DNA of 64,000 nt from an uncultured Bacillota bacterium (lineage in GTDB: Bacteria > Bacillota_I > Bacilli_A > RF39 > UBA660). The notes below the pieces were generated by a model. It was not told the origin of the DNA and ran no database searches. It saw nothing but the letters and a program-made list of their open reading frames with translations. Position numbers and translations under genes: made by a program. Every line of letters begins with the position of its first letter. The first letter of the stretch is position 1. Below are positions 4,520 through 36,709 of this stretch, piece by piece. The stretch spans positions 523,298 through 587,297 of the forward strand of contig OW818670.1 in NCBI GenBank assembly GCA_942493215.1, written 5' to 3'.

Positions 4520-4550
4520 ATAACAAAAAAAGAGAGTATTATTCTCTTTT
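4520..4550 (-). terminator. Rho-independent terminator after tadA (minus strand)
   Basis: Palindrome AAAGAGA-gtattat-TCTCTTT followed by a T-run on the minus strand. Confidence 0.5.
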
Positions 4551-4985
4551 TAGTTCAAAAAAGTTTTTTAATAGTTTTGATGCTTCTTCTTGGCAAACTC
4601 CGCTTGTATAGTTAACGTGATGATTACTTTTTTTGTTATCAAAAATATTATCAATACTTTCTACGCCACCAAATTTCTCGTTTTTAGTTGCATATATTAC
4701 TTTTTTTATACGAGATTGCAATATTGCACCACAGCACATAATACATGGCTCTAATGTTACATACATCGTGCAGTCATTTAAATACCAGCTCTTCTTTTTT
4801 CGACATGCAGATTCAATAGCTATTATTTCAGCATGCTTTGTTGCCATCTTTTCTAATTCTTTTTTATTATAGCCTTTACTAATAATTTTGTTATTTTCAA
4901 CAATAATTGCTCCAACTGGAACGTCGCCATTAGCAAATGCTTTTTTTGCTTGTTTTATAGCCAGTAACATATATTTTTCATTCAT
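4539..4985 (-). CDS. tadA: tRNA-specific adenosine deaminase
   Basis: CDA fold with HAE and PCxxC (HAEIIAIE, PCIMCCGAI). The ORF extends to 5012, but the MNEKYMLL start at 4985 has a GGTGA RBS, so 4985 is used. Confidence 0.8.
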   Translation of the reverse strand: MNEKYMLLAIKQAKKAFANGDVPVGAIIVENNKIISKGYNKKELEKMATKHAEIIAIESACRKKKSWYLNDCTMYVTLEPCIMCCGAILQSRIKKVIYATKNEKFGGVESIDNIFDNKKSNHHVNYTSGVCQEEASKLLKNFFELKRE

Positions 4986-5120
4986 CTTATCACCATCTAA
5001 AATGACGCACATATTTAGAGGATTTTAAGGCTGCTATCTTCCGATCCTGACCTGTTTCAAACATAAACATTGCGTCTTTAATAATATAATATAATTAATA
5101 AGTTTATGCAACAAAATTTA

Positions 5121-5136
5121 TGTTTCACGTGAAACA
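5121..5136. promoter_or_regulatory. parS site 1 (TGTTTCACGTGAAACA, perfect Firmicute consensus)
   Basis: Exact match to the ParB/Spo0J binding consensus TGTTNCACGTGAAACA. Perfect 16-bp palindrome in an ORF-free spacer. Confidence 0.8.
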
Positions 5137-5226
5137 TTGTTCATAAATTATTTCCCGGGAAATAATTTTTATAATTATTTTCAGATTTACCATTTCTGTT
5201 ATTTCCCAACCAAAAAAAAGGAAATA
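5137..5226. repeat. Direct repeat copy A (about 85 bp) following parS site 1; contains the 18-bp palindrome TTATTTCCCGGGAAATAA
   Basis: About 85% identical to 5749-5838, including the shared tail CTGTTATTTCCCAACCAAAAAAAAGGAA. Confidence 0.7.
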
Positions 5227-5286
5227 CTAATTTTTACAATGTAGATTATTATAGTTATGTTTAATTATCATAAATATAACATTGTA

Positions 5287-5302
5287 TGTTCCACGTGGAA
5301 CA
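5287..5302. promoter_or_regulatory. parS site 2 (TGTTCCACGTGGAACA)
   Basis: Perfect palindrome, one-base variant per half-site of the parS consensus. Embedded in the 18-bp palindrome ATGTTCCACGTGGAACAT. Confidence 0.75.
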
Positions 5303-5452
5303 TTGAAAATTACTATATTATTTTTGCTAATTGAAATATTTAATTTAGTCATTATTATAAATATATTGAAACATTATTTAATTTTATAATTTGTATTGTA
5401 AAATATATATATACTTTTAAATTATTTTTAATTGTTTTGCTTTAACACTTAT

Positions 5453-5468
5453 GTTCCACGTGGAACAT
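5453..5468. promoter_or_regulatory. parS site 3 (TGTTCCACGTGGAACA)
   Basis: Embedded in the 24-bp perfect palindrome CTTATGTTCCACGTGGAACATAAG. Confidence 0.75.
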
Positions 5469-5578
5469 AAGTAACCAGTTTATATATTACTGTTTTAGTA
5501 TCAGTTGGTGCTACTTTCTAGTAAAAAGAGAACTAAAATACTAATTATATAGCAAATATATGTTATAAATTTATTTAA

Positions 5579-5594
5579 TGTTTCACGTGGAACA
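5579..5594. promoter_or_regulatory. parS site 4 (TGTTTCACGTGGAACA)
   Basis: Hybrid of the two half-site variants. Flanked by TAA/TTA extensions. Confidence 0.75.
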
Positions 5595-5732
5595 TTAGAT
5601 AATACTTAAAATAGTAATAAAATAAGACTTTTAAATAAAAGGTATTAAATAATAATATTAAAGATTAAATATTTTTATATTAAGGCATATAGAAAATTAA
5701 ATTCATAGAAATGCTTTTATATTAAATGATTA

Positions 5733-5748
5733 TGTTCCACGTGGAACA
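5733..5748. promoter_or_regulatory. parS site 5 (TGTTCCACGTGGAACA)
   Basis: Embedded in the 26-bp perfect palindrome GATTATGTTCCACGTGGAACATAATC. Confidence 0.75.
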
Positions 5749-5838
5749 TAATCTATAAAATATTTCCTGGGAAATAATTTTTCGTGTTTGATTACAGATT
5801 TGCCGTTTCTGTTATTTCCCAACCAAAAAAAAGGAAGT
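5749..5838. repeat. Direct repeat copy B (about 85 bp) following parS site 5 and abutting the gyrA stop
   Basis: TATTTCCTGGGAAATAATTTTT ... GCCGTTTCTGTTATTTCCCAACCAAAAAAAAGGAAG, aligns with copy A. Confidence 0.7.
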
Positions 5839-8264
5839 TAAATATCACAAACTTCCTTTTCATCAGCTTTAATTATAGCAACCGTGCTAACTTTTTGATT
5901 GTCTTTTAAATTGATTAATCTTACTCCTTGAGCTACTCGTCCTGTTGATGATACTTGACTCAAAGGTAATCTTATAATAATACCACTATCGGTAATAATC
6001 ATTAAATCTTCATCGCCATGAACAGATTTAAATGAAACAATATTCCCGTTTTTTTCAGTGATATTTAAAGCTTTAACTCCTTTGCTACCACGATGTGTAA
6101 TTCGATATTCATTAATATCCGTTTGTTTGCCATAACCATTCTCAGTTACAACTAGAACTTGTTGATCTGTTTCAGCAATTTCCATACCAACTGCGTAGCC
6201 TTCACCGACATCAATACCACGAACGCCAGAAGCACTACGACCCATAACTCTAATTTCTTTTTCATCAAACCTAATCATACGTCCGTTAGAAGAAGCAATT
6301 AGTATTTCATTTTCTCCCTCTGTCTTTTTAACGGAAATCAATTGATCGTTTTCATTTAATGAAATAGCAATCTTACCATTAGTTCTAATGTTACTAAACT
6401 CTGAAAGACTTGTTCTTTTAACCGTTCCATTTTGAGTACAGAAAACAATATATTTAGAACTATCATCAGCCAAAACCTTTAACATTACTTTAATTATCTC
6501 ATCTTTTTCAATCGGTAATAAGTTAACTATTGGTAAACCTTTAGATTGACGGCTAAATTCTGGAACCTCATAACCTTTAACACGATAAACTTTACCTTTA
6601 TTAGTAAAGAACATTAAATAATCATGTGTTGTCATCGAGATTAAACTTTCTACAAAATCTTCTTCATTCGTAGCCATACCCTTAATACCTACGCCACCGC
6701 GATTTTGAGTCTTATATGTTTCACATTGTATTCTCTTTATATAACCTTTATTAGTTAAAGTTATTACAATATCCTCTACAGGTATTAGTGATTCATCTTC
6801 AATGTAATCAGCAGATGTCATATCAATGTGAGTTCTTCTTTCATCAGCATATTTTCCTTTTATTTCTAACAACTCAGTACGAATTATTTCCAATACTCGT
6901 TGCTCGCTAGCTAGAATAGCTTTGTATTCTTCAATAGCTTTTAATAAATCTGCTAATTCAGACTCAATCTTGCCTCTTTCTAAACCCGTTAAACGACGCA
7001 ATTTCATTTCGAGAATAGCTTCTGTTTGGATATCAGTTAAACCAAAATTAGAAGTTAGTTTTGCCTTTGCATCGTCGTCACTTGAAGCCTCTTTAATAAT
7101 TTTAATTACTGCATCAATATTATCAAGAGCAATTTTTAATCCTTCAAGAATATGAACTCTCTTCTCGGCTTTAGTTAGATCATATCTTGTTCTTTTGATG
7201 ATTATTTCCTTTTGATAATCAATATATTTAGAAATAATTTGTTTAAGCCCAAGTGTCTTTGGAACACCATTATCAATCATTAATAAAATAATACCATATG
7301 TTGTCTGAAAAGATGTATGTTTATATAAGTTGTTAAGAACAACCTGTGGATTAGCATCCTTCTTCAATGTTATGGTAATTTTAATACCATTTTTCAAGTC
7401 ACTATGATAATCAGAAATTCCATCTATTATTTTATTGTGGACTAGTTCTGCAACTTTATTTTTTAATTCTAAAGTATTGACACCATAAGGAACCTCATCA
7501 ATAATAATATAACTTTTACCATCATTTTCCTCAATAGTAGCCTTACTACGAATAGTAATGGTACCACGTCCTGTTTCATAAGCTTTTTTTATCTCACTGT
7601 TACCAAGAATAATACCACCAGTTGGAAAATCTGGTCCCTTAATATAATTCATTAATCCTATAGTATCAATTTCAGGGTTATCAATATAGGCAACACATCC
7701 ATCAATTACTTCACCAAGATTATGAGGTGGAATATTAGTAGCCATACCAACAGCTATTCCCATTGTTCCATTAACTAGAATGTTAGGAAATCTTGATGGT
7801 AAAATAGTTGGTTCCTGTAATGATTCATCAAAGTTTGATCTAAACTCAACTATTTCTGGTCGAATATCTCTTAATAATTCCAAGGATATTTTTGAGAGCC
7901 TTGATTCGGTATAACGCATTGCCGCTGCTCCATAGCCATCGATATTTCCGAAGTTACCATGACCATCGACTAACATATAACGATAGCTAAAATCTTGAGC
8001 CATTCTTACCATTGCCTCATAAATACTAGAATCGCCGTGTGGATGATATTTTCCCATTACATCACCAACAATACGTGCTGATTTTTTATGTGGCTTATCT
8101 GGGAAATAGCTTGATTCATACATTGAATATAAGATTCGACGATGAACAGGCTTTAATCCATCTCTTAAATCTGGTAAAGCACGGGATACAATAACGCTCA
8201 TTGAATAATCCAAGAAAGAATCTTGAATTTCATTAACAATATTATTTTGTACTAATTTATCCAT
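5838..8264 (-). CDS. gyrA: DNA gyrase subunit A
   Basis: 808 aa. Active-site region AAMRYTE, QRDR-like [20 protein letters not shown]-terminal beta-pinwheel repeats. Confidence 0.95.
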
Positions 8265-11450: not shown

Positions 11451-11909
11451 TTAGCCTATTTTTCTCTGACGCATCATTGATTCCAACCTTGTTGCTCTTA
11501 AAATTTGATTTTCTAATGAAGAATAAGAAATTTTTAGTTCTAAATCCTGTCCGTTGCTTAAAATCAAAATACTACCACTAGAACTGTTTTCACTTTTTCG
11601 ATAATTAGAAATATGTTTCAATGATATCCAATAACAATCATCAATTCTTGGAGAACTAGTTGGAAAAAAAATAATTTCTGTTGATTCTTCTATTATTATT
11701 GGCGTTTTGTAATTGAAACCGATTAAGCTTTTTGTTCCTTCAAATCTCCCAGCATAAGAACTGCCAAAATATCTACAACTATCATCAATAATTTCTGTGG
11801 TAGTTTTATTAATAAAATATATGTTATCATCTTCTATTACTTTCGATACATTACTTTTTATAGGTATTATGGCAATTGTATGCTTATTAATCTCATAGCT
11901 GTCTAACAT
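11451..11909 (-). CDS. comK: ComK-family competence transcription factor (short, 152 aa)
   Basis: Aligns by eye to B. subtilis ComK. DSYEINKHTIAIIP matches ESYEVNGATIAVLP, DSCRYFGSSYAGRFEGT matches RSCRFFGSSYAGRKAGT, TPIIIEESTEIIFFPTSSP and SNGQDLELKISYSSLENQILRATRL are also shared. Confidence 0.7.
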   Translation of the reverse strand: MLDSYEINKHTIAIIPIKSNVSKVIEDDNIYFINKTTTEIIDDSCRYFGSSYAGRFEGTKSLIGFNYKTPIIIEESTEIIFFPTSSPRIDDCYWISLKHISNYRKSENSSSGSILILSNGQDLELKISYSSLENQILRATRLESMMRQRKIG

Positions 11910-13297: not shown

Positions 13298-14659
13298 TTA
13301 CTTTATTTGTTCCACAATCTTATTTATTTCTTGTTCTAAATTACTATCTTTAACAATAGCTTTTTTAATTTTATCAACTGAATGCATAACGGTAGTGTGA
13401 TCTTTTCCACCAAATTCAAGTCCAATTTTAGGTAATGATTCTTTTAAAAAGATTCTACAAATGTACATCCCTATCTGTCTTGGAACAGAAATCGTCATCA
13501 TTCTCTTCTTACTTTTTAAATCTTCTACACTAATATTATAGTTATTAGCAATAATTTGTTGGACTTGATTAATTTTATTTTTTGAAATAAAGGTTTTACC
13601 AAAGTAGTCTTTTAAGGCTTCGACCGCTAATTCTAAAGTAATATCAGAACCATTCATAATGGTTGCATAAGCAAAAATTCTTGTAATAGCGCCCTCTAAT
13701 TTTCTTATATCACTTGTACAGTTACTAGCAATATAATCTTTTACATCATTTGGAAAATATGATGCTATCCCCTGTCCTTCAATTTTTTTGTCAATTATAT
13801 TTAACCTTAAAGGTAAATCTGGTGGTAATAAATCAACGGTAATTCCCCAATAAAATCTTGTTTTTAAACGATCTTCAAATTTCTTTAAATCATCTGGTGA
13901 TCTATCAGAACAAATTATGATCTGCTTATTTTTTTGATGTAATTCATTAAAAGTGTTGAAAAATTCTTGTTGCGTTTTACTAGCAATTTCAAGATATTGA
14001 ATATCATCAATCATTAAAACATCTAAATCTCGATATTTTCTTTTAAAATTTTCGATGGCTGAAAAATTATTCTCATCTTTATTTTTCCTATATAAATCTA
14101 AAAAGTCTTCGACAAATTTTTCACAAGTAATATAAAGTACCCTTTTATTTGTATTTTTTGATATATAATTACCAATTGCATGTATTAAATGCGTTTTTCC
14201 TAAGCCACTGTTGCCATATATAAATAAAGGATTATAAACATAACCTGGTTTTTCAGCTACCGCTAGTGCTGTAGCTTGAGCAAATTTGTTACTATTTCCA
14301 ACAATAAATGTATCAAAAGTATATTGTGGATTTAAATTAGTTTCAAAATTAATATTATTAGGTACGCCCATTTCATCAGTATTTACTTCAATATTCTTTT
14401 CTTGTTCTTCCTCAGTAATATACTCTATTTGAAAGTTTGATCCTGTAATATCAGTAAATATTTCTTCCACTATATCATTATAACTTTCTTTAATATGTTT
14501 TTTATGAATATGCATAGGAACTAGAACAATTGCTTTGTTATCTTTTATTTCAATTAGGGTTGTATCTTTGAACCAAGTATCGAAAGACATAGGTGCTAGT
14601 TGATCTTTTATTCTAGATAAACATGATTGCCAAATGTTTTCCACATCCATAAAACCCAC
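13298..14659 (-). CDS. dnaA: Chromosomal replication initiator DnaA
   Basis: 453 aa. AAA+ Walker A GNSGLGKTHL, and a C-terminal DnaA-box-binding helix-turn-helix. Confidence 0.95.
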   Translation of the reverse strand: MGFMDVENIWQSCLSRIKDQLAPMSFDTWFKDTTLIEIKDNKAIVLVPMHIHKKHIKESYNDIVEEIFTDITGSNFQIEYITEEEQEKNIEVNTDEMGVPNNINFETNLNPQYTFDTFIVGNSNKFAQATALAVAEKPGYVYNPLFIYGNSGLGKTHLIHAIGNYISKNTNKRVLYITCEKFVEDFLDLYRKNKDENNFSAIENFKRKYRDLDVLMIDDIQYLEIASKTQQEFFNTFNELHQKNKQIIICSDRSPDDLKKFEDRLKTRFYWGITVDLLPPDLPLRLNIIDKKIEGQGIASYFPNDVKDYIASNCTSDIRKLEGAITRIFAYATIMNGSDITLELAVEALKDYFGKTFISKNKINQVQQIIANNYNISVEDLKSKKRMMTISVPRQIGMYICRIFLKESLPKIGLEFGGKDHTTVMHSVDKIKKAIVKDSNLEQEINKIVEQIK

Positions 14660-14739
14660 CCACTCTCGCTAATTACCTATATCTTACAATAAAAATAAGA
14701 AAAAAGAAAGCAAAAAAAAACTTAAAAAAACAAATCACA

Positions 14740-14906
14740 TTTTTTTCCACCATAAAACACCTTTAAAAACAATAAATAATGTAGTTTTCCACACCTAAAA
14801 ATTATTTTTTCCACATATTAAAAATTCCACATTAATAACTTTTCCACATAGCTGTTGAAAAGTCCAAAATATAAAGTAAAATTATGAATACATTTATGTG
14901 GAAAAA
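14740..14906. promoter_or_regulatory. Upstream oriC DnaA-box cluster
   Basis: TTTTTCCACC at 14741, TTTTCCACA at 14785, 14807 and 14840, AATTCCACA at 14823, and inverted TGTGGAAAA at 14897. That is six boxes in about 170 bp upstream of dnaA. Confidence 0.75.
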
Positions 14907-18512: not shown

Positions 18513-20396
18513 ATGGATTATGAAATAATTGTCGTTGGTGGTGGACATGCTGGCTGTGAGGCTGCTTTGGCTTGCGCTAGAAAAAGACATCGTACTTTAC
18601 TTATAACAAGTAATATTAAAAATATAGCTGATATGCCATGTAATCCTTCGATTGGTGGTAGTGCTAAAGGTATAGTTGTAAGAGAAATTGATGCTTTAGG
18701 CGGTGAAATGGGTGGGAATGCTGATAAGGCGCAATTACAAATGAAAATGTTAAATGATAAGAAGGGTCCTGCTATTCAATCCTTAAGAGCCCAAGCTGAT
18801 AAAATAACCTATCCCCAAGAGATGTTAAAAACACTCCAAAATCAAGAATGTTTAACAATTAAAGAAGCCATGGTTGAAGATTTGTTGGTTGAAGAAAACA
18901 TAATAAAAGGTATTATGTTGGAAGATAGCACTAAAATTATTTCCCAAGCTGTTATTATAACAACAGGAACCTATTTACGTGCTGATATAATGGTGGGAAA
19001 TACTAGGACTAGTGAGGGTCCACATGGTGAACGACCAAGTAAATTTTTAAGTAATAATCTAGCGAAACTAGGTTTTAAAATAATACGTTTAAAAACAGGT
19101 ACACCTCAGCGAATAGCGAAATCTAGTATTGATTTTAGTAAAACGAAAGAGGAAAAGGGTAGTGATGAGCTATTAACATTCAGTTTTGATAATGAACCAA
19201 ACTATAATATTGATGATCAATTACCTTGTCATTTGATATATACGACCGAAGAAACTCATAATATAATTCGTAAAAATCTTCATAAAGCTAGTATGTATGG
19301 TGGTTTAAGTGATATTACAGGAGTTGGTCCTAGATATTGTCCTTCCATAGAAGATAAAGTTGTACGTTTTAGTGATAAAGAAAGGCATCAATTATTTTTA
19401 GAACCAGAAAGTCGTTATTATGATGATATATATGTTCAGGGTTTTTCTACCAGTATGCCTCATAATATTCAAGAAGAAATGGTTCACAGTTTACCAGGTT
19501 TGGAACATGCTAAAATATTAAAATATGCCTACGCTATTGAATATGATGCTATATATCCTACGCAATTAAAGCAAAATTTAGAAACAAAATTAATTGAAAA
19601 CCTTTATACAGCTGGTCAAATTAATGGAACAAGTGGTTATGAAGAAGCTGCCTGTCAAGGATTAATGGCTGGTATTAATGCCTCTTTAAAATTAGAGGGA
19701 AAAGAACCGTTTATATTAAAAAGAAGTGACGCCTATATTGGTGTTTTAATTGATGATTTAGTTACAAAAGGGATAAGGGATCCTTATCGTTTATTAACAT
19801 CAAGGGCTGAATATCGTCTTTTATTACGCCATGATAATGCTGATTTAAGATTAAGAGAGATGGGTTATCAAATAGGATTAATTTCCGAAGAGCAACATCA
19901 AAAATTATTAAATAAGATAGACTTAATTAATGAATTAATAAATAAATTAAAAGGAAATAAGATTATTCCTAATAAAGAAACAAATGACTATCTAACAAAT
20001 AATAATTCAGCCATTATAAAAGATGGATTAAGTTTATATAATTTATTAAAAAGACCAGAAATTACTATGACAAATATTGAGCATTTTTATCCGATCGAAT
20101 ATAATAAAGCTATAGTTGAACAAGTAGAAATAATGATTAAGTACGAAGGTTATATTGATAAAGCAATTAAAGAAGCCAATAAAATGATTAATATGGAAAA
20201 TAAATTAATACCTTTAGATATTGATTATGATAAAGTTAAGAATTTAGCCAGTGAAGCTCGTCAGAAATTAAAAGAAATACGACCAACATCTTTAGGACAA
20301 GCATTACGAATTAGTGGCGTTAATCCTGCTGATATATCAATTCTAATGGTTTACTTAAAAAAGGAGTTTAATCATGACCGAAACACAGTTTGTTAA
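18513..20396 (+). CDS. mnmG: tRNA uridine 5-carboxymethylaminomethyl modification enzyme MnmG
   Basis: 627 aa. FAD-binding VVGGGHAGCEAA. Confidence 0.95.
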   Translation: MDYEIIVVGGGHAGCEAALACARKRHRTLLITSNIKNIADMPCNPSIGGSAKGIVVREIDALGGEMGGNADKAQLQMKMLNDKKGPAIQSLRAQADKITYPQEMLKTLQNQECLTIKEAMVEDLLVEENIIKGIMLEDSTKIISQAVIITTGTYLRADIMVGNTRTSEGPHGERPSKFLSNNLAKLGFKIIRLKTGTPQRIAKSSIDFSKTKEEKGSDELLTFSFDNEPNYNIDDQLPCHLIYTTEETHNIIRKNLHKASMYGGLSDITGVGPRYCPSIEDKVVRFSDKERHQLFLEPESRYYDDIYVQGFSTSMPHNIQEEMVHSLPGLEHAKILKYAYAIEYDAIYPTQLKQNLETKLIENLYTAGQINGTSGYEEAACQGLMAGINASLKLEGKEPFILKRSDAYIGVLIDDLVTKGIRDPYRLLTSRAEYRLLLRHDNADLRLREMGYQIGLISEEQHQKLLNKIDLINELINKLKGNKIIPNKETNDYLTNNNSAIIKDGLSLYNLLKRPEITMTNIEHFYPIEYNKAIVEQVEIMIKYEGYIDKAIKEANKMINMENKLIPLDIDYDKVKNLASEARQKLKEIRPTSLGQALRISGVNPADISILMVYLKKEFNHDRNTVC

Positions 20397-21078
20397 TGAA
20401 TTACTTAAAGATAATCTTACTATTACATCAACGCAATTAGAGCAATTAGGGCAATATTATCAATTATTGATTACTTGGAATGAAAAAATAAATTTAACAA
20501 CTATTGTTGAAAAAGATAGTGTTTATTTAAAACACTTTTATGATAGTTTAATGCTTATTAAGATTATTGATTTAAATAATATAACAACTCTATGTGATGT
20601 TGGAACAGGAGCGGGATTTCCTGGGCTAGTTTTAAAAATATTATTTCCTCATCTGCATATAACTCTTGTTGATTCTATGCAAAAAAGAACGTTATTTCTT
20701 AATGATGTCATTAATAAGTTAGGATTAAAAGATGTTAAATTAGAAAATATAAGAGCTGAAGATTTTGCAAAAACAACAAGAGAACAATATGATGTAGTAA
20801 CTGCTAGAGCGGTTGCTAAGTTAAACATTTTATTAGAATATTGTACGCCTTTAGTTAAGGTAGAAGGTTGTTTTATTCCTTTAAAGGGTAATGTTGATGA
20901 AGAAATAAAAGACATTGTTTATCCTTTAAAAGAATTATCACTTAAAATGGAAGATGTCATTAAATTTCATCTCCCATATGAGAATAGTGAGAGGACCCTA
21001 ATTAGATTTAGAAAAGAACAAATAACTAATAAAAAATATCCTCGTAGTTATAAGGATATGCTAAAAAAGCCATTATAG
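20374..21078 (+). CDS. rsmG: 16S rRNA (guanine527-N7)-methyltransferase
   Basis: 234 aa. SAM motif DVGTGAGFPG. Overlaps the mnmG 3' end by 23 nt and has AAGGAG ahead of its ATG. Confidence 0.9.
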   Translation: MTETQFVNELLKDNLTITSTQLEQLGQYYQLLITWNEKINLTTIVEKDSVYLKHFYDSLMLIKIIDLNNITTLCDVGTGAGFPGLVLKILFPHLHITLVDSMQKRTLFLNDVINKLGLKDVKLENIRAEDFAKTTREQYDVVTARAVAKLNILLEYCTPLVKVEGCFIPLKGNVDEEIKDIVYPLKELSLKMEDVIKFHLPYENSERTLIRFRKEQITNKKYPRSYKDMLKKPL

Positions 21079-21087
21079 GAGGTTAAA

Positions 21088-21921
21088 ATGGAATATTCAC
21101 CAACTAAAATTCAGCATCTTTTAGAACAACATAATTTTAATATTAAAAAGAAATTTGGTCAGAATTTTATTGTTGATGAAAATATCATTAATAATATTAT
21201 TAGTAAGGCCAATATTGATAATAATACTTTAGTTATTGAAATTGGTCCAGGGATTGGATCATTAACTAATAAATTGGCCCTAAAAGCTAAAAAAGTACTA
21301 TGTTATGAGATAGATACAACCTTAAAACCATTTCTTGATGATATTGTTAATGAATATAGTAATGTTGAAATAATATATGATGATTTTTTAAAGGTGGATA
21401 TTAACCGAGATATTGATCAAAACCAATGCGAGAAAATATATGTGGTTGCTAATTTACCATATTATATAACTACACCCATATTAGTTAAATTAATTGAAAG
21501 TAATATACCAATTAATAAAATAATTATAATGGTACAAAAAGAAGTAGGAGATCGTTTTAAAGCTGAACCTGGTAGTAAAGATTATAGTTCTTTATCAGTC
21601 TTTTTAAGTTATTATTATGATATTAAAAAGATTATTGATGTCAGTCGTAATGTCTTCTTACCTAAACCCAATGTTGATAGTATTGTTTTAGAGTTCACTA
21701 AAAAAGAACATTTAATTAATCTAAAGAATAAAGAATTATTTTTTAAATTAGTTAGAGATAGCTTTAAACATAAACGTAAAAATATTAGAAATAATCTAAT
21801 GGATTATGATCTAAAGGCTGTTGAAATAGTCTTAAAAGAACATCATTTTGATTTGACAGTGAGAGCTGAACAATTATCCCTTGCTATTTTTATTGCTATA
21901 GCTAATACTTTAGAAAAATAA
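21088..21921 (+). CDS. rsmA: 16S rRNA (adenine1518/1519-N6)-dimethyltransferase
   Basis: 277 aa. FGQNF, EIGPGIG, NLPYYITTPIL. Confidence 0.9.
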   Translation: MEYSPTKIQHLLEQHNFNIKKKFGQNFIVDENIINNIISKANIDNNTLVIEIGPGIGSLTNKLALKAKKVLCYEIDTTLKPFLDDIVNEYSNVEIIYDDFLKVDINRDIDQNQCEKIYVVANLPYYITTPILVKLIESNIPINKIIIMVQKEVGDRFKAEPGSKDYSSLSVFLSYYYDIKKIIDVSRNVFLPKPNVDSIVLEFTKKEHLINLKNKELFFKLVRDSFKHKRKNIRNNLMDYDLKAVEIVLKEHHFDLTVRAEQLSLAIFIAIANTLEK

Positions 21922-21985: not shown

Positions 21986-23281
21986 ATGAATACTAAAAAG
22001 ATAATTATTATTACATTTGGGGTTATTTTATTTATTGTAGCCATGTTTTTAACGGTCAAAAAGGATCAGAAAAATGTAAGCAGTAATAATAGTAATAATT
22101 ATGGTAACAGCAATAACAATAATTATGATAGTAGTATACCAGTAATGGGTCTAAATATTGGTTTAGATGTGTTGGAAATGAATATTGGTCAAACGACTAA
22201 ACTAAATTATAAAATGGATCCTATTAATGCTAGTAATCCTTCTTTAGAATGGAAAAGTAGTAATATCAATATTGTTAAAGTTGATAATAATGGTAATATT
22301 ACAGCCATTTCAGCCGGTGATGCTATTATAACAATTACATCTTTATTATCAAAAGTAAGTGATAATTGTCATATAACAGTCATAGATTATAAAATTACAG
22401 GTATATCTTTATCAGTAACAAATTTAACGTTAAAAAAAGGTGATAAATACCAAATTAATCCTATTTTAACACCGGTAAAAGCCAATAAAGATTATTTAGT
22501 ATATACTTCTAATAATAGTACCATTGTATCAGTTACAAAAACAGGAGAAATAACAGCACTTAATTATGGAACAGCTATCATTAATGTTCAATCAGGTAAT
22601 ATAGTTAAGAGTATAAATGTAAATATACCTATTACTAATCTTAATCCTAGTTGTCCCAATAATTCTTACTATTTATCTGCTGATAATACTTTATGTATTC
22701 AATCAACTAAACAACCAAGTTGTTCAACGGGATATCGCTATGATGATAGATTAAAATCTTGTATTCAAGTAGCTAATCCGGTTTGTCCAACCGGTACGAT
22801 CTATTCTGGTGATGGTATTTGTAAACAAACAAAAACAGTTAATCCCGTATGTAATCAGGGTTCGTATAATAGTAAAACAAAAAAATGTCTTATTAAGACA
22901 ACACCACACTGCACTAAAGGTGTATTTAATTCAAAAAAGAATAAATGTGTTGATGGTAATACTTTAACAAGTATAAAATGCTATACTGGAACATATAATT
23001 CAGCAACTAAAACGTGTAATAAATATGTAAGTTTTTCTTGTCCAAGCGGCTATAGTATTAATAAGAAAAAAGGAACATGTGAAATAACAATCAAGAAAAA
23101 TGCTTGTCCAATTGGAATGAGTTATGATAAAAATTTAACTAAATGTGTTCAAAAAATTACTCCAAAATGTGCTCAGGGATCTAATTTAGAAACGAATGGT
23201 TATTGTACAGGTATTAGTACTGTTAATGCAACTTGTCCAAGCGGTTATAGTTTGGTTAAAGGAAGCTGTTTAATAAATTAA
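21986..23281 (+). CDS. Membrane-anchored surface protein: N/S-rich linker, two Big_2 Ig-like domains, ten tandem Cys2 repeats of about 20 aa
   Basis: 431 aa. N-terminal signal anchor. Big_2-like blocks (VKVDNNGNITAISAGDAIITI and ITALNYGTAIINVQ). C-terminal repeats follow the pattern C-x2-G-x-Y-x6-C-x7. Confidence 0.6.
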   Translation: MNTKKIIIITFGVILFIVAMFLTVKKDQKNVSSNNSNNYGNSNNNNYDSSIPVMGLNIGLDVLEMNIGQTTKLNYKMDPINASNPSLEWKSSNINIVKVDNNGNITAISAGDAIITITSLLSKVSDNCHITVIDYKITGISLSVTNLTLKKGDKYQINPILTPVKANKDYLVYTSNNSTIVSVTKTGEITALNYGTAIINVQSGNIVKSINVNIPITNLNPSCPNNSYYLSADNTLCIQSTKQPSCSTGYRYDDRLKSCIQVANPVCPTGTIYSGDGICKQTKTVNPVCNQGSYNSKTKKCLIKTTPHCTKGVFNSKKNKCVDGNTLTSIKCYTGTYNSATKTCNKYVSFSCPSGYSINKKKGTCEITIKKNACPIGMSYDKNLTKCVQKITPKCAQGSNLETNGYCTGISTVNATCPSGYSLVKGSCLIN

Positions 23282-23310
23282 AGAGTGTTGTAAAAACATT
23301 CTTTTCTTTT
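23282..23310 (+). terminator. Terminator after the Cys-repeat protein gene
   Basis: AGAGTGTT-gtaaa-AACATTCT followed by TTTCTTTT. Confidence 0.5.
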
Positions 23311-23333
23311 GTCAAAGGAGGAATAATAATATT

Positions 23334-24599
23334 TTGCAAATTATTGGTATTGTTGAAGTATTTATTATTTTAATAACAGGATTATACTTTACTTTTAGAT
23401 TAAATTTTTTACAATTTAATTTCTACAAATTATTAAAAAAAAATAATCATCAAAAAAACATATCCAATTATTCCCCTGTATCTATATTATTAATGGTTTT
23501 AGGAGGAAGAATAGGGGTTGGAAGTATTGCAGGTGTTGCGCTTGCTATCTATTTAGGAGGACCAGGTAGCATATTTTGGCTCCTATTTTCAGCTCTTATT
23601 ACCGCCATTTTATCTTATGTTGAAACTATTATGGGTCATCTTTATAAAGAAAAAGAAAATGATCTTTATTATGGTGGCCCTAGTTATTATTTAGAAAAGG
23701 GATTAAATAAAAGAATATTAGGTATTGTATACTCTATATTAGTTATTATTTGTTATGTTTGGGGCTTTGTTAGTATTCAGGCTAATACAATCGTGAAGTC
23801 AATTAAAGAAATAATAAATGTTGATACATTAACCATCGCGATTATTCTAGGACTAATTACTTTTTATATCATTTATGGTGGTTTAAAAAAGATAATTAAA
23901 GTAACTAACATTTTAGTTATTGTTATGATGTTTTTATATTTTGGTTTAACTATTAATGTAATAATTACTCATGTTAAAGAAATACCTTCTCTTTTTTCTT
24001 TAATAATTAATTCGGCTTTTAATAGTAAGGCAATAATAAGTGGCATCATATCATCAATGATAATTGGTATTCAAAGAGGAATTTTTGCTAACGAAGCTGG
24101 ACTTGGAACCGGAAGTATCGCTACGTCAATTATTGATTCTAGTAATATGGAAAGGCAAGGATATTTACAAATAATCGGAGTCTATATTACAACTTTTATG
24201 GTCTGTCTAGCTACCGCCCTAATTATTCTTACTTCAAATTACAACTATCTTGTTTTTAAAGATCTAAACGGTATTGAAATAGTTCAATATGCTTATTTAT
24301 ATCATTTTGGTAATGGAGGAAATATTATTCTTTTCTTGTTTGTCTTCCTTTTTGCTTTTTCAACCATTATAACTTGTTATTATTATGGCGAAGCAAGTTT
24401 ACGCTATATTTTAGGAAAAACTAATAAAAGATTAAACTTTATATTAAAAATTATAACTAGTTTGCTTGTTATATTAGGGTGTCTGGTATCGGCTGATGTC
24501 TTGTGGAAAACAGTCGATTTATTTACCTGTACCCTTGTCTTAATAAATATTTATGCTTTAATTAAACTACGGACCAAATTATTATCTCATTTTAACTAA
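23334..24599 (+). CDS. Alanine/glycine:cation symporter (AGCS family) transporter
   Basis: 421 aa polytopic protein with the GGPGSIFWL motif, matching the AGCS GGPGAxFWMW signature. TTG start. A putative AGGAGG RBS lies 12 nt upstream. Confidence 0.65.
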   Translation: MQIIGIVEVFIILITGLYFTFRLNFLQFNFYKLLKKNNHQKNISNYSPVSILLMVLGGRIGVGSIAGVALAIYLGGPGSIFWLLFSALITAILSYVETIMGHLYKEKENDLYYGGPSYYLEKGLNKRILGIVYSILVIICYVWGFVSIQANTIVKSIKEIINVDTLTIAIILGLITFYIIYGGLKKIIKVTNILVIVMMFLYFGLTINVIITHVKEIPSLFSLIINSAFNSKAIISGIISSMIIGIQRGIFANEAGLGTGSIATSIIDSSNMERQGYLQIIGVYITTFMVCLATALIILTSNYNYLVFKDLNGIEIVQYAYLYHFGNGGNIILFLFVFLFAFSTIITCYYYGEASLRYILGKTNKRLNFILKIITSLLVILGCLVSADVLWKTVDLFTCTLVLINIYALIKLRTKLLSHFN

Positions 24600-24634
24600 A
24601 AATATGATAAAATAATTAAAAGAAGAGTGAGATA

Positions 24635-25285
24635 ATGATAAACAAAAAGTGGGACATAATATTAGATGAAGAATTTGACAAAGAATATTTTAAAAAGTTA
24701 GGTATATTTGTCAAATCACAATATCAATCAAGAACTGTTTATCCCCAATATAAAGATATCTTTAATGCATTGAGATATACTGATTATGATGAAGTAAAAG
24801 TAGTTATTTTAGGGCAAGACCCTTATCATGGTGAAGGGGAAGCACAAGGCTTATCATTCTCTGTTCCAGAAGGGATAAGCTGGCCACCTTCTTTACAAAA
24901 TATTTTTAAAGAACTAAAAAGTGATTTAAATATTGAAAAAAAAGAAAGTGATTTGTCTGGGTGGGCTAAACAAGGAGTATTGCTGTTAAATGCCATTATG
25001 ACGGTTGAAAAAGATAAGCCTTTATCTCATAAAGATAAGGGTTGGGAAATATTTACTGATAATATTATTAAAAAATTAAGTGAGCGAAAAGAACCAATGG
25101 TTTTTATATTATGGGGTAATTATGCCCGTAGTAAAAAAGAACTAATTGATATTAAAAAACATTTTGTTATTGAAAGTGTTCACCCATCACCATTATCAGC
25201 TAGCCGTGGCTTCTTTGGCAGTAAACCATTCTCACAAACAAACAAATATTTAGAGCAATTAGGATATGAAAAAATAAATTGGTAA
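24635..25285 (+). CDS. ung: Uracil-DNA glycosylase (family 1)
   Basis: 216 aa. GQDPYHG water-activating loop and HPSPLS motif. Confidence 0.9.
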   Translation: MINKKWDIILDEEFDKEYFKKLGIFVKSQYQSRTVYPQYKDIFNALRYTDYDEVKVVILGQDPYHGEGEAQGLSFSVPEGISWPPSLQNIFKELKSDLNIEKKESDLSGWAKQGVLLLNAIMTVEKDKPLSHKDKGWEIFTDNIIKKLSERKEPMVFILWGNYARSKKELIDIKKHFVIESVHPSPLSASRGFFGSKPFSQTNKYLEQLGYEKINW

Positions 25286-25297
25286 AGAGGGATTATA

Positions 25298-26623
25298 ATG
25301 GAAAATGTTTATGAATATTTAACAAAAGAATTAAATATTAAATATGGTGATAGCATTGTTGTAGGTGTGTCTGGTGGACCAGATTCTATGTGCTTATTGC
25401 ATCTCCTAATTCGTTTAAAGAAAGTTTTAGATATCGAAGTAATATGCGCTCATGTTAATCATAATGTGCGGCCAGAAAGTGTTGACGAGAGAGTTTTTGT
25501 CCACAATTTTTGTTTAGCTAATAATATTATTTTTGAATCAATGGTTATTGAAGATTATGGTGATGATAATTTTCATAATGAAGCGAGAACCAAACGATAT
25601 AATTATTTTTCTACTATTGTTAAAAAATACCACGCTAAATACTTATTAACAGCGCATCATGCTGATGATTTAATGGAAACAATTTTAATGCGTATTGTTA
25701 GAGGGTCAACCTTAAGGGGATACAGTGGATTTTCTAAAGTGGTTGATATGGGGGATTATCAAATTATTCGTCCCCTTATTAATGTTACTAAAGATGATAT
25801 TATGAAATATAATAAAGAGAATAATATATCGTTTGTAGAAGATAAATCTAATTATAAGGATGTCTATACTCGTAATCGGTTTCGTAAATACATTGTTCCT
25901 GAATTTAGAAAAGAAGATCCCAGTGTTTATCAAAAATTCTATAAATTTAGTTTAACTTTATTAGAATACAATAATTATATGGATCAACAAGTTAAGAAGA
26001 TTATTAAACGTATTTATCCCCAAGGAGTATTAAACATTGAGTTGTTTCTTAAAGAAGATCACTTAATTCAAATGAAAATAATATATTATATTTTAGAATA
26101 TATTTATCAAGATGATTTAATGTTAGTTACCGATACTCATGCCCAATTAATATATAATCTTATTTTATCTAAAAAAGCTAATGTTAAATTATTCTTACCT
26201 AATAATGTTAAAGCTATAAAAGCCTATAATACTTTAACTTTAGTCAAAGATAATCAAAATAGTGATGAATATGAAATTCAAATAACGGACTTTGTTAACT
26301 TACCTAATGGTAAAAATATTCAGACGATTAAAAGAAGTGCCGATGACAGTAACAATATTTGTCGTTTAGATAGTAGAGAGGTAAAACTTCCTCTTCATGT
26401 TCGAAATCGCCAAAATGGTGATAAAATGACCATTAAAGGAATGATTGGTAATCGCAAAATTAATGACATATTCATTGATGATAAAATTCCACTTGAAGAA
26501 AGAAAAGCCTGGCCTATCGTTATGGACTCTAATGGAATAATTGTTTGGCTACCAGGTTTAAAAAAATCAAAATTTAGTAAAACAAAATCTGAAAAGTATG
26601 ATATAATACTAAAGTATTATTAA
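25298..26623 (+). CDS. tilS: tRNA(Ile)-lysidine synthetase
   Basis: 441 aa. PP-loop SGGPDS. Conserved tilS-ftsH linkage. Confidence 0.85.
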   Translation: MENVYEYLTKELNIKYGDSIVVGVSGGPDSMCLLHLLIRLKKVLDIEVICAHVNHNVRPESVDERVFVHNFCLANNIIFESMVIEDYGDDNFHNEARTKRYNYFSTIVKKYHAKYLLTAHHADDLMETILMRIVRGSTLRGYSGFSKVVDMGDYQIIRPLINVTKDDIMKYNKENNISFVEDKSNYKDVYTRNRFRKYIVPEFRKEDPSVYQKFYKFSLTLLEYNNYMDQQVKKIIKRIYPQGVLNIELFLKEDHLIQMKIIYYILEYIYQDDLMLVTDTHAQLIYNLILSKKANVKLFLPNNVKAIKAYNTLTLVKDNQNSDEYEIQITDFVNLPNGKNIQTIKRSADDSNNICRLDSREVKLPLHVRNRQNGDKMTIKGMIGNRKINDIFIDDKIPLEERKAWPIVMDSNGIIVWLPGLKKSKFSKTKSEKYDIILKYY

Positions 26624-26634
26624 GGAGGAATGCC

Positions 26635-28491
26635 ATGAATAAGAAAAATATGAGAAAAGGAGTCGTACCTTATATATTTTTATTCGTATTTATAATCGCA
26701 ATTGTTTTTCTTTTTGAAACATTAAATCAAAAAGTAAATGTTTTAAATTATAATCAATTTATTAAAATGCTTGATAACGAGGAAATCACTGAATTAATGA
26801 TTACTCCTAATCAAAATGCAGGAACATTTGAAATGACTGGTCGTATTAAAAGTTATAATGAAAATGAAAGCTTTTTTGTTAAAATACCTGATTCTGATCA
26901 GTTAATAAATAGTATTTTAATTAAAGTAGATACGCAAGATATCAAGGTATTAACTAAAAATGACCCATCATCAAGTAGTTTAGTCTTCTTGTTAAATATG
27001 TTACCAACTCTATTATTAATTGGAGCTGCTTTCTATTTTTTAACTAAACAATTATCTGGTGGAGCAGCTAAATCAATGGATTTTGGTAAGAGTAGAGCTC
27101 AACTAAATGTTACTAATAAAAAGATTACTTTTGATCAAGTAGCAGGATTACCTGAAGAAAAAGAAGAGGTTCAAGAGTTAATTGATTTCTTAAAGAATCC
27201 TAAAAAATTTCAAAAAATGGGAGCTAGAATACCTAAAGGTGTATTATTAGTAGGTCCTCCAGGAACAGGTAAAACTTTATTAGCGCGAGCTGTAGCAGGT
27301 GAAGCTAATGTTCCATTCTATTTTATTAGTGGATCAGACTTTGTTGAGTTATTTGTTGGTGTTGGTGCTAGCCGTGTCAGAGACATGTTTAAGCAAGCTA
27401 AAGGTAATGCTCCATGTTTAATATTTATTGATGAAATAGATGCAGTAGGTCGTCAACGTGGTGCTGGTTTAGGTGGTGGACACGATGAACGTGAACAAAC
27501 TTTAAATCAATTATTAACCGAGATGGATGGCTTTGGTGCTAATGAAGGAATTATTATTATCGCTGCTACTAACCGTCCTGATGTATTGGATCCGGCTTTA
27601 TTAAGACCGGGCCGATTTGATCGACAAATTACGGTTAATTTACCAGATATTAATGCCAGAGAAGAGATATTATTAGTTCATGCTAAGGGTAAAACATTCG
27701 ATAATAGTGTTAATCTTAAAAATATAGCTAGAAGAACAGTTGGCTTTAGTGGAGCTGATTTAGAGAACCTATTAAATGAAGCCGCTTTATTAACAGTAAG
27801 ACGCAATAAACCAGCTATTACGATGTCAGAAATAGATGAAGCTCATGATCGTGTCCTTATGGGACCAGCTAAAAAATCTAAAAGGTATACCGATACGGAA
27901 AAAAGATTAGTAGCATATCATGAAGCTGGACACGCTGTTGTTGGTATTAAATTAGATGGTGCTAATGATGTTCAAAAAATAACTATTATTCCACGTGGTA
28001 ATACTGGTGGTTATAACTTAATGTTACCTAAAGAAGAAACCTTCTTATCAACTAAAAAAGAATTATTAGAATCAATTAGTGGACTACTTGGTGGTCGGGT
28101 TGCTGAAGAAATTGAATTTAATGAAGTAACAACCGGAGCTCATAATGATTTTGAGCATGCTACTAAAATAGCCCGGGCTATGGTAACAGAATATGGTATG
28201 AGTAAATTAGGACCTATTCAGTTAGAACATCAAGAATCAAGTGTTTTCTTAGGACGTGATTATAATAAGAGTCGCAATTTCTCCAGTCAAGTAGCTTATG
28301 AAATTGATGTTGAAATACGTGATATTATTGACAAACAATATAAGATAGCACAAAAAATAATTAAAGAAAATCGTGATTTATTAGATTTAATTGCTAAAAC
28401 GTTAATTGAATATGAAACGCTTACTAAAGAGCAAATAGATTATTTATCTGAACATGGTGAGTTACCAGAAGAGATTAAAAGTAGCAATTAA
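26635..28491 (+). CDS. ftsH: ATP-dependent zinc metalloprotease FtsH
   Basis: 618 aa. Two N-terminal TMs, AAA Walker [17 protein letters not shown] zinc site. Confidence 0.95.
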
Positions 28492-28667
28492 ATAGTAAGG
28501 CATTATTTTAATAAAAATATTTAGAAAAGACACCTAGATATACCTTAAAATGTTAGAGGTAAATATTGGGTGTCTTTTAAATTGATAAAACAACATAAAA
28601 ATTTAGATTGAAAAAAAATAAAATTTGTGGTAATATTGCATTAGAAATAGGAGTGTGTGTGTTTTGT

Positions 28668-33740: not shown

Positions 33741-33765
33741 AAATATTTATTAAATAAAGCCTTGG

Positions 33766-33800
33766 AAGAAGTAGCTATATTCTACTTCTTTTTTATTATT
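33766..33800 (+). terminator. Terminator after the giant Big_2 gene
   Basis: GAAGAAGTAG-ctatat-CTACTTCTT followed by TTTTTATT. Confidence 0.65.
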
Positions 33801-33954
33801 AAAATAACTTTGACAGTTATTACATAAATAATGATAAAAAACATTATACAAAAAAGTTATTTTGTGCTAATATATTGTAATCAATGAAAAATAATAATGA
33901 AATTGAAAAAAATCTTAAAATGTGCTAATATCTTTAGAAGGGGAAGTGTGTTTT

Positions 33955-35865: not shown

Positions 35866-35933
35866 TATTTATCTCTTTTTTCTTGAAAAAATAACAATCA
35901 TAATATATAATTAAGAAAGATAGGAGTGGTAAT

Positions 35934-36599: not shown

Positions 36600-36602
36600 A
36601 AT

Positions 36603-36630
36603 AAAAGAGGTTACCTCTTTTATTTATTTT
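36603..36630 (+). terminator. Terminator after the pilin-like gene
   Basis: AAAAGAGG-tta-CCTCTTTT followed by ATTTATTTT. Confidence 0.7.
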
Positions 36631-36709
36631 GACCTTAAAAAAAGATAGCTTTATATTGTTAATTATGGTAAAATATTAATTGGATATAAATTAGAAATTT
36701 GGTGATGAT

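Follow-up and report, generated by a model that had tools for sequence, protein, structure and literature searches.

The 751-bp spacer between gyrA and ffs (positions 5087-5837 of the window, as the whole 64-kb stretch of DNA analysed here is called) is predicted to be the centromere-like locus of its chromosome, where ParB would load at five clustered parS sites and a Noc-like paralogue would load beside it at Noc-binding sites (NBS); judged from sequence comparison, this reading has a probability of about 0.8. Comparison supports reading the five sites as an oriC-proximal cluster of parS centromere sites at which the chromosomal ParB acts, and they are the only ones within the origin-proximal 64 kb of the ~1.49-Mb genome, where parS sites further off are possible. 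The position of the array is shared throughout a clade of uncultured gut Bacilli with small genomes, of which more than 100 keep such a cluster at this junction, often together with NBS. Dense chromosomal parS clusters are already known, and the array alone is a new case of them; the novel part is the pairing of parS with NBS, and a literature search for combined parS/NBS arrays found no relevant report.

The genes and signals around the array are as follows.

4539 to 4985, minus strand: tadA, encoding tRNA adenosine deaminase, with its most likely start at 4985
4988 to 5086, minus strand: ffs, the bacterial small SRP RNA gene (Rfam, 61.3 bits), directly after the array
5825 to 5861, minus strand: gyrA intrinsic terminator, whose 12-bp stem surrounds the stop codon and leads into a U8 run
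5838 to 8264, minus strand: gyrA (NF004043, 1152.6 bits), just past whose stop codon the array begins
14637 to 14905, unstranded: five DnaA boxes (TTTTCCACA) upstream of dnaA, at the GC-skew switch, marking oriC

A sequence-only reading of this DNA had described an ORF-free, AT-rich spacer of 825 bp between tadA and gyrA. The stretch is indeed without ORFs, and its GC content is 20.5% (16.6% after removal of the sites) against 29% for the window, but it also holds ffs, the gyrA terminator and two NBS; the true intergenic stretch is that between gyrA and ffs. The gene ffs has a putative promoter (TTGCAT-17 nt-TATATT) that is kept in a sister species, and Rfam identified no other structured RNA in the whole window. 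The array is origin-proximal: oriC, placed at 14.6-14.9 kb by the DnaA boxes and the GC-skew switch, lies ~9 kb away, and the parAB genes (36710-38363) ~31 kb away, both distances agreeing with the sequence-only reading. A second origin within the spacer was considered and rejected, as no DnaA boxes with at most one mismatch occur at 5087-5837, those of the window being at 13.2 and 14.6-14.9 kb.

Exact matches to TGTTYCACGTGRAACA in the 64-kb window number five, starting at 5121, 5287, 5452, 5579 and 5733 and packed into 628 bp; these predicted parS sites, all unstranded, are listed here.

5121 to 5136: parS1, TGTTTCACGTGAAACA, the exact Firmicute consensus, in an 18-bp perfect palindrome ~10 bp upstream of the putative ffs -35 element; its module is kept in the sister species
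5287 to 5302: parS2, TGTTCCACGTGGAACA, in an 18-bp perfect palindrome; the sole parS type of two relatives (L050 and L057)
5452 to 5467: parS3, TGTTCCACGTGGAACA, in a 26-bp perfect palindrome (5447-5472)
5579 to 5594: parS4, TGTTTCACGTGGAACA, an imperfect palindrome of two unlike half-sites (T5 versus G12)
5733 to 5748: parS5, TGTTCCACGTGGAACA, in a 26-bp perfect palindrome (5728-5753) that resembles a terminator when read in the gyrA sense

All five are judged to match TGTTNCACGTGAAACA, the inverted repeat of Firmicute-type chromosomal parS; T or C at position 5 belongs to this published consensus, and the G found at position 12 in four sites mirrors the C allowed at position 5. Exact matches to TGTTNCACGTGNAACA were five, compared with 0.00 expected from 100 dinucleotide shuffles. 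No further parS with at most two mismatches was found in the whole 64 kb, and eight parS-like matches with three mismatches occur elsewhere in it (chance expectation ~2). Comparison with the sequence-only reading bears out its placement of the five sites, its identification of site 1 as the exact Firmicute consensus, and its assignment of sites 2, 3 and 5 to one variant and site 4 to another. Its spacings of 166, 166, 126 and 154 bp are corrected to 166, 165, 127 and 154 bp from start to start, and its claim that every site lies within a perfect palindrome of 18-26 bp holds for parS1, parS2, parS3 and parS5 but not for parS4. Its description of the sites as a plasmid-like tandem array does not apply to the window, where they are irregularly spaced in unrelated AT-rich DNA and TRF detects no tandem repeat, only a two-copy 110-nt module being present; it does fit some relatives, with periods of 37-117 bp. 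Interpretation of the array as an intrinsic terminator or REP-like element was also rejected: the motif has no copies outside the spacer, parS5 alone among the parS of the window passes a terminator scan, and gyrA has a separate terminator.

A ParB protein with parS-type recognition residues and its ParA partner are both encoded in the window.

36710 to 37495, plus strand: parA, encoding a soj-type ATPase
37476 to 38363, plus strand: parB, spo0J-type, the only ParB-family ORF in the window

The recognition stretch of ParB (GKSRSHLTNVLGLLRLP...SMGHAR) reads R-V-R-G, the parS type, and the protein carries R173 and G201, which are invariant in parS-binding ParBs (PMC7383237, the source of the residue rule). 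It also has the GERRxRA and ENLQRE CTP-binding motifs and an N-terminal LGRGL peptide, and its best match in the PDB is Spo0J of B. subtilis (6sdk, 209.5 bits). There is no parS inside the parB gene of the window.

Conservation of the array, a check proposed in the sequence-only reading, was assessed in 80 related species (given L numbers here), of which 66 loci had enough sequence to be informative, and the outcome was positive. All but one of these (65/66) have 2-12 parS at the same gyrA-ffs-tadA junction, with at least three in 60/66 and at least five in 26/66. Within 2.5 kb after gyrA the 80 species have 350 parS with at most one mismatch, versus none in 1.275 Mb of other flanking sequence, a degree of conservation that exceeds neutral expectation. 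The sites are intact rather than decaying, as 314 are exact, 36 have one mismatch and only six have two. Position 5 is only Y and position 12 only R throughout the clade, so that the C/G variant belongs to the clade consensus, and both half-site types alternate freely inside the arrays of relatives. The ffs gene is 3' of the array in most relatives, the last parS being usually 60-100 bp upstream of it; in some, parS sites occur after ffs or after tadA. Array spacing ranges from 37 to 300 bp and architecture from irregular to strictly tandem, the regular head-to-tail arrays being those of L003/L005 (~37-39 bp, 7 copies), L017 (53-54 bp, 11 copies), L040 (64 bp, ~8 copies), L078 (75 bp, ~9 copies) and L072 (117 bp). 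The sister species, whose DnaA is 94% identical and whose locus was assembled independently from two samples, has seven parS and two NBS in the same layout as the window, but only the sites and two end modules can be aligned, the DNA between the sites being no longer alignable.

The end modules contain the two NBS, which the sequence-only reading had overlooked, each 12 bp from a parS site.

5118 to 5225, unstranded: module copy A (parS, NBS, tail, T8), a direct repeat ~80% identical to copy B
5149 to 5164, unstranded: NBS1, TATTTCCCGGGAAATA, the exact 16-bp Noc-binding core, 12 bp from parS1; exact also in the sister species
5182 to 5207, minus strand: tail A, an NBS half-site with a short hairpin (GGGAAATAACAGAAAnnnnAAATCTG), preceding NBS1 along the gyrA strand
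5730 to 5838, unstranded: module copy B (parS, NBS, tail, T8), a direct repeat abutting the gyrA stop codon
5761 to 5776, unstranded: NBS2, TATTTCCTGGGAAATA, with one central mismatch, 12 bp from parS5; the identical variant occurs at the orthologous gyrA-proximal position of the sister species
5795 to 5820, minus strand: tail B, the same half-NBS and hairpin motif, preceding NBS2 along the gyrA strand

With the 16-bp NBS core taken from the literature (PMC8429893), the window has two matches to this palindrome versus 0.00 expected, at start-to-start distances of 28 and 28 bp from the nearest parS; there is no other NBS in the 64-kb window, nor in a further 12 kb from the sister genome. The tail was rejected as a clade-wide element, being present only in the window and the sister species. 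Pairs of parS and NBS recur across the clade, sometimes as strict tandem units of 64-117 bp. The arrays of relatives contain 100 NBS versus 44 in 1.275 Mb of flanks, an 18-fold higher density, and start-to-start distances to the nearest parS peak at 24-28 and 32-36 bp. When metagenomes were scanned without bias for parS-N6-36-NBS, 120 contigs were retrieved, of which 111 have the pair at gyrA/ffs/tadA. In the closest GTDB relatives (L001-L011) the arrays lack NBS, which counts against the proposed explanation.

The protein that would occupy the NBS is a Noc-like ParB paralogue, which relatives (L050, L081 and L083 among them) encode at the canonical position of noc after rsmG. Noc itself is marked by Q173, K179/K184 and R201; the recognition residues of the paralogue are Q-K-N-R (with Q173, K179 and R201), a Q-K-x-R pattern being found in 114 of 120 homologues, and it is closest to the crystal structures of Noc (7NG0/7NFU, 209 bits). 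The Noc-like proteins score 278-288, under the NCBIfam cut-off of 315 for Noc, and align to Noc only from chain residue 26-27 onward: those of the clade begin at the main N-terminal domain, without the ~20-25 residues that include the membrane-targeting amphipathic helix of Noc. The start codon of the noc-like gene of L081 is confirmed by a ribosome-binding site directly after the rsmG terminator, and the PNRFQPR motif starts at residue 15-20 in 117 of 120 homologues. In the window and the sister species the slot after rsmG holds rsmA. A phmmer search of all ORFs in the window matched only its ParB and found no Noc-type gene, and the same search in relatives found only one within 10 kb of gyrA, the Noc-like gene of L050. 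With no Noc-type gene in the window and rsmA in the slot, the NBS part of the model is without its protein here. An NBS inside rsmI was rejected as a proxy for Noc in the lineage of the window, as rsmI is missing from that position in the sister species.

By analogy with established ParB biochemistry, ParB dimers would nucleate at each parS, bind CTP, close as clamps and slide onto the DNA on either side. With five loaders in 628 bp, the spacer would be one high-flux source of ParB and would give rise to a single dense partition complex immediately left of oriC, on which ParA (Soj) would act and which would probably load SMC. The array may expand and contract as modules that carry sites are duplicated (five sites here, seven in the sister species and 2-12 in relatives), with the 16-mers preserved while the intervening DNA drifts. 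Both NBS would be part of the locus, each with a parS 12 bp away and an additional NBS half-site before it, and the Noc-like paralogue, encoded outside the window, would load at them beside ParB.

A single parS suffices for segregation in other species, for example P. aeruginosa (PMC4368675), so that five may be unnecessary, which counts against this explanation. The parS could be genuine and their multiplicity functionless, having arisen neutrally when palindromic modules slipped or recombined unequally, with one site doing the work; the differences in copy number among relatives and between the sister species, the 110-nt duplicated module, and several relatives' arrays that are young tandem repeats with units 90-92% identical all point this way. 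We consider it unlikely, since decayed copies are rare (six two-mismatch sites to 314 exact), at least three sites are kept in nearly all informative species, and the sites of the window and the sister species are perfect within unrelated, fast-drifting DNA, which argues for selection on each site and not recent copying. That the palindromes act mainly as RNA or DNA hairpins, terminating or insulating transcription between the highly expressed gyrBA operon and ffs rather than binding protein, is hardly credible. The 26-bp palindrome of parS5 is terminator-like and the gyrA 3' flank (5720-5870, minus strand) folds strongly (z = -5.9), but gyrA already has its own, GC-richer terminator at 5825-5861, and a T-run is missing after most sites. 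Complementarity alone would suffice for a hairpin, yet relatives with GyrA only 70-81% identical to that of the window keep the exact 16-mer, with no compensatory variation, and this 16-mer is the consensus for a protein that the genome encodes. Palindromes after genes can double as terminators, and in several relatives (L018-L021, L027, L033 and L043) the first parS, with a T-run, is the stem of the gyrA terminator; this too counts against the centromere-like reading.

An operator function, in which ParB at the array chiefly tunes ffs-tadA-dnaX transcription or gyrBA read-through and segregation is secondary, is very unlikely. It would account for parS1 ending ~10 bp before the putative -35 element of ffs, for the parS1-promoter block being conserved better in the sister species than any other part of the spacer, and for the usual position of the last parS of relatives upstream of ffs; however, one site would suffice for an operator, not 2-12, and some relatives have sites beyond ffs or tadA. 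In model species, ParB spreading from chromosomal parS barely affects transcription. The two NBS alone might be inherited relics, or bound by nothing, if Noc had been lost in the lineage. No Noc-type ORF occurs in the 64 kb and rsmA follows rsmG in both the window and its sister, no extra NBS occurs in either sequence, the L001-L011 arrays are without NBS, and the NBS inside rsmI has decayed in L002, L006, L007, L009 and L010, the members of that group with enough downstream sequence. Nonetheless both NBS, with the identical one-nucleotide variant and the half-site tails, are kept between two species whose spacer is unalignable, and an exact 16-mer is unlikely to persist unselected in drifting 17%-GC DNA; loss of function at the NBS is rather doubtful.

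Returning to the centromere-like locus, a further and more tentative possibility is that gyrA-ffs is a composite centromere, at which ParB and a helix-less, NBS-specific, Noc-like CTP-switch clamp would be loaded side by side from paired 16-bp sites. The Noc lineage would then act at the centromere in this clade and not as a scattered, membrane-tethered nucleoid-occlusion factor; the Noc-like protein might set limits to ParB spreading or insulate against it, help to organise the origin region, or affect initiation. For the window, a composite centromere requires a Noc-like gene elsewhere in the genome.

Of known systems, the array resembles parS-Spo0J of B. subtilis and other Firmicutes in having the same 16-bp palindrome (parS1 being the exact consensus) near the origin, a ParB most similar to Spo0J, with R173 and G201, and a Soj-type ParA. 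In B. subtilis about ten parS are spread as single sites across hundreds of kb, including one within spo0J, whereas those seen in the 64-kb window are all in one spacer, at a position fixed in the clade. The 16-bp core TATTTCCCGGGAAATA is identical to the NBS of B. subtilis Noc, but NBS in B. subtilis are scattered around the chromosome, unpaired with parS, and its Noc, unlike the clade's Noc-like proteins, has the membrane-targeting helix; in the window they are 12 bp from parS and nowhere else in 64 kb. Clustering as such is not the rarity that the sequence-only reading made of it, tight origin-proximal parS clusters being documented (PMC3778016, PMC10197239, PMC7333895), including clustered parS in gut Firmicutes (PMC10197239) and 24 parS directly upstream of parAB in Myxococcus xanthus (PMC3778016). 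Dense clusters are also known in Corynebacterium glutamicum (10), Caulobacter, Pseudomonas (4) and Streptomyces (20-23) (PMC7083940, PMC5815017, PMC4368675, PMC7333895). These clusters likewise consist of many near-consensus sites near oriC, thought to form one partition complex. Unlike that of M. xanthus, the array of the window is confined to one spacer and not beside parAB, and unlike all of them, it belongs to a series with fast turnover of copy number between species and is combined with NBS, which are absent from those other phyla because Noc is confined to Firmicutes (PMC7383237). In the sopC centromere of the F plasmid a 43-bp unit is present in 12 direct copies, and SopB binds the 16-bp inverted repeat that each unit contains (PMC3177203). 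This design, one 16-bp ParB site per head-to-tail unit, is shared by L003/L005, L017, L040, L078 and L072, although the clade arrays are chromosomal and many units have a second, different 16-mer (NBS); a constant repeat period like that of sopC is found in L040 and L078 but not in the irregularly spaced array of the window.

The reasons for the clustering of parS, and for the variation in their number though one is enough, have been posed as open questions (PMC7333895). The locus is a natural series bearing on both, its junction fixed in more than 100 related genomes that differ in number of sites (2-12), in spacing (37-300 bp) and in architecture. In practical terms, the array causes breaks at a foreseeable point in metagenome-assembled genomes and serves to locate the origin region in genomes of the clade. 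In the recurring parS-NBS pair, the two best-studied CTP-dependent DNA clamps have their sites 8-20 bp from each other, a proximity that makes clamp collision, roadblocking and co-assembly directly testable. The helix-less Noc-like family bears on the divergence of Noc from ParB, of which the composite centromere could represent an early or alternative state.

Five 16-bp ParB sites (parS1-parS5) form an array at the gyrA-ffs-tadA junction and are accompanied by two Noc-binding sites (NBS1 and NBS2). The features of the junction, together with the partition genes, are listed by window position.

4988-5086, minus strand: ffs, bacterial small SRP RNA gene (Rfam)
5118-5225 and 5730-5838: ~110-nt module, a direct repeat in two copies, ~80% identical
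5121: parS1, TGTTTCACGTGAAACA
5149: NBS1, exact 16-bp core TATTTCCCGGGAAATA
5287, 5452 and 5733: parS2, parS3 and parS5, TGTTCCACGTGGAACA each
5579: parS4, TGTTTCACGTGGAACA
5761: NBS2, one mismatch to the core
5825-5861: gyrA intrinsic terminator, strong hairpin and U8 run
36710-37495: parA, 31 kb from the array
37476-38363: parB, the sole ParB-family ORF in the window

The positions and sequences of the five 16-mers in the sequence-only reading are right (five matches in the window versus none in 100 shuffles), and a scan that allowed up to three mismatches found no other parS with two or fewer mismatches in the 64 kb, parB included. The spacings, put there at 166, 166, 126 and 154 bp, measure 166, 165, 127 and 154 bp, and the perfect palindromes of 18-26 bp ascribed to every site are found at sites 1, 2 (18 bp), 3 and 5 (26 bp), but site 4 is imperfect. 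The spacer, described as ORF-free, indeed has no ORFs, but it contains ffs. The longest tadA ORF (4539-5012) overlaps the 3' part of ffs by 25 nt, and homology begins at the ATG at 4985, the most likely start; mechanical ORF calling therefore makes tadA too long, and the true intergenic stretch is 5087-5837. DNA between the sites is 16.6% GC, versus 29% for the whole window, and a DnaA box is absent from the spacer.

Each ~110-nt module reads, on the plus strand, parS, 12-bp gap, NBS, a 'tail' (short hairpin and an extra NBS half-site) and a T8 run, and parS2-4 are positioned between the two copies. The two matches to the 16-bp NBS core (PMC8429893), both missed by the sequence-only reading, compare with 0.00 expected, and each lies 12 bp from a parS. 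The next relative, a sister species (DnaA 94% and HolB 83% identical) assembled independently from two runs with the same layout in both, has the order gyrA terminator, tail, variant NBS (with the 1-nt change seen in window NBS2), seven parS, tail, exact NBS, 11 bp, parS and ffs promoter. When the two spacers are aligned, conservation is limited to the pair of end modules, the parS 16-18-mers and the putative ffs promoter (TTGCAT in the window and TTGCAA in the sister species, 17 nt, TATATT); the array interior has drifted and the number of parS differs. This pattern is direct evidence of selection on the parS sites and NBS modules. The tail motif is confined to these two species.

The array is kept at the tadA-gyrA junction well beyond the sister species. 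Among 80 species of uncultured gut Bacilli retrieved from GTDB genomes through GyrA (70-81% identical), whose MAGs are labelled Bacilli, Tenericutes, Mollicutes or Erysipelotrichaceae and whose named genera are 'Bacilli incertae sedis', nearly every one has gyrA, array, ffs and tadA in that order. With up to one mismatch allowed, 350 parS lie within 2.5 kb after gyrA versus none in the other 1.275 Mb fetched. At the 66 informative loci, those with at least 700 bp downstream, there are at least two parS in 65, at least three in 60 and at least five in 26 (median 4, maximum 12). The great majority of the sites are intact: 314 match exactly, 36 differ at one position and 6 at two. Position 5 is always Y and position 12 always R, so the C/G variant of the window, which is the only type in two relatives (loci L050 and L057), falls within the clade consensus. 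The array had been called plasmid-like and tandem; that of the window is not a tandem repeat, but some relatives do have regular ones, of 64 bp in 7.8 copies (L040) and 75 bp in 8.8 copies (L078).

Several relatives depart from the simple layout. In L018, L019, L020, L021, L027, L033 and L043, the first parS, within 100 nt after gyrA, is lengthened to a longer palindrome with a T-run, so that this ParB site also forms the stem of the intrinsic terminator of gyrA. A second small cluster occurs ~2.0 kb after gyrA in L029 and L030, and extra groups occur past ffs or tadA in L018-L021, L043, L055 and L079; thus the centromere region can span ~2 kb, across genes. Many MAG contigs end within the array (L001, L003, L005, L011, L015, L060, L061, L066), which indicates that short-read assembly fails at this junction because of the repeats; the array lengths of such MAGs are lower bounds.

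NBS accompany parS in the relatives as well. The arrays contain 100 NBS in 161 kb and the flanks 44 in 1,275 kb, an 18-fold difference in density, and one or more NBS are present in the arrays of half of the informative loci. Measured from start to start, an NBS most often lies 24-28 or 32-36 bp from its nearest parS (both NBS of the window lie at 28 bp), and L040, L044, L072 and L078 have one parS and one NBS per tandem unit. When metagenome contigs were scanned for the pattern parS-N6-36-NBS regardless of context, at least 120 matched; among the 120 matches listed, the gyrA 3' end and/or ffs/tadA adjoin in 111, 8 contigs are without those genes adjoining and 1 adjoins a parB-family gene, so that among these matches the composite is essentially specific to this junction in this clade. 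The sole cluster adjoining a ParB-family gene rather than gyrA (metagenome contig L172, 1553-3322; the gene scores parB 184 versus noc 162) may represent a different arrangement or a different replicon.

Exact NBS also occur inside the rsmI coding sequence ~7 kb after gyrA (L013:19379, L014:19518, L020:19125, L037:18863 and others). The peptide I-S-R-E-I is written ATT-TCC-CGG-GAA-ATA, an exact NBS, in 10 relatives (15 with up to one mismatch), in codons that in our judgement look rare for a 29%-GC genome, and in other relatives AT-rich codons spell out the same peptide. This provides a separate line of evidence that selection acts on the NBS as a DNA sequence. Species that carry the rsmI NBS for the most part have none in the array, and vice versa.

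A candidate partner for the NBS is a noc-like gene between rsmG and dnaA in L050 (1730-3148), preceded ~150 nt upstream of its start codon by an exact NBS (1576-1591), which suggests autoregulation. At its C terminus the L050 protein is extended by ~270 low-complexity residues, in which N, S and D abound. Bacilli MAGs encode a large family of its homologues, ~315 residues long, from the position after rsmG that noc canonically occupies; their best structural matches are Noc crystal structures (209 bits, versus 172-175 for the best ParB/Spo0J), and the specificity positions read Q-K-(N/S/G/T)-R in 114 of 120. They score under the NCBIfam Noc cut-off and start at the main N-terminal domain, without the 20-25 residues that form the membrane-targeting helix of Noc (PMC8429893).

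The noc-like gene is absent from the 64-kb window, and none follows rsmG in the window or the sister species; in the window, rsmA/ksgA rather than noc-soj-spo0J comes after rsmG (20374-21921, 21986-38363), and parAB lie another 15 kb on, past genes for an alanine symporter, udg, tilS, ftsH and Big_2-rich surface proteins, among them a 1710-residue ORF with 18 Big_2 repeats (28608-33740). The window ParB matches B. subtilis Spo0J best (6sdk, 209.5 bits, versus 161.8 for Noc), has the GERRxRA and ENLQRE motifs, and reads R-V-R-G at the four parS/NBS specificity positions; R173 and G201 do not vary among ParBs that bind parS (PMC7383237). The GC skew changes sign at 14-15 kb and five DnaA boxes (TTTTCCACA) lie upstream of dnaA, which places oriC ~9 kb from the array. 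A ComK competence-regulator gene between dnaN and recF (11451-11909, minus strand; Pfam ComK, 157.7 bits) interrupts the otherwise canonical dnaA-dnaN-recF-gyrB-gyrA block, in the same place in the sister species.

Sequence and comparison show five intact parS, maintained by selection, at a junction near the origin whose position is fixed; the window also encodes the cognate ParB and a ParA and contains two NBS modules that are conserved. Neutral multiplication of parS through slippage fits the turnover in copy number, but does not explain why so few sites have decayed or why perfect ones persist in drifted DNA. A role purely as hairpins or terminators conflicts with the unchanging exact 16-mers, the lack of T-runs and the separate gyrA terminator, and a role as ffs operator is possible for parS1 only. 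The window NBS could be relics if the lineage has lost Noc; against that reading, they are conserved between two species, but the 64 kb encode no Noc-type protein.

Established ParB and Noc biochemistry (PMC7333895, PMC8429893) suggests that ParB dimers would nucleate at each parS, bind CTP, close and slide away. With five loading sites in 628 bp, the array would behave as a single source of high flux and build one partition complex ~9 kb left of oriC, serving both ParA-driven segregation and SMC loading. More speculatively, a Noc-like clamp might load 12 bp from parS1 and parS5, where it might form a boundary or roadblock or take part in co-assembly.

The rarity of such an array had been overstated. 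Dense origin-proximal clusters are established, for example in Myxococcus xanthus (24 parS), Corynebacterium glutamicum (10 parS) and gut Firmicutes, whose sites are clustered (PMC3778016, PMC7083940, PMC10197239); the regular arrays of some relatives, unlike the non-tandem one of the window, share the design of F sopC, a regular array of 16-bp ParB sites (PMC3177203). The array of the window alone is thus of a known kind. The literature searched yielded neither a centromere fixed at one intergenic junction across a clade with such rapid turnover of site number, nor a systematic pairing of parS with Noc-binding sites alongside a Noc-like family without the membrane helix. The parS-NBS pairing is the chief new element, above the fixed junction with its turnover, and is the part most worth pursuing.
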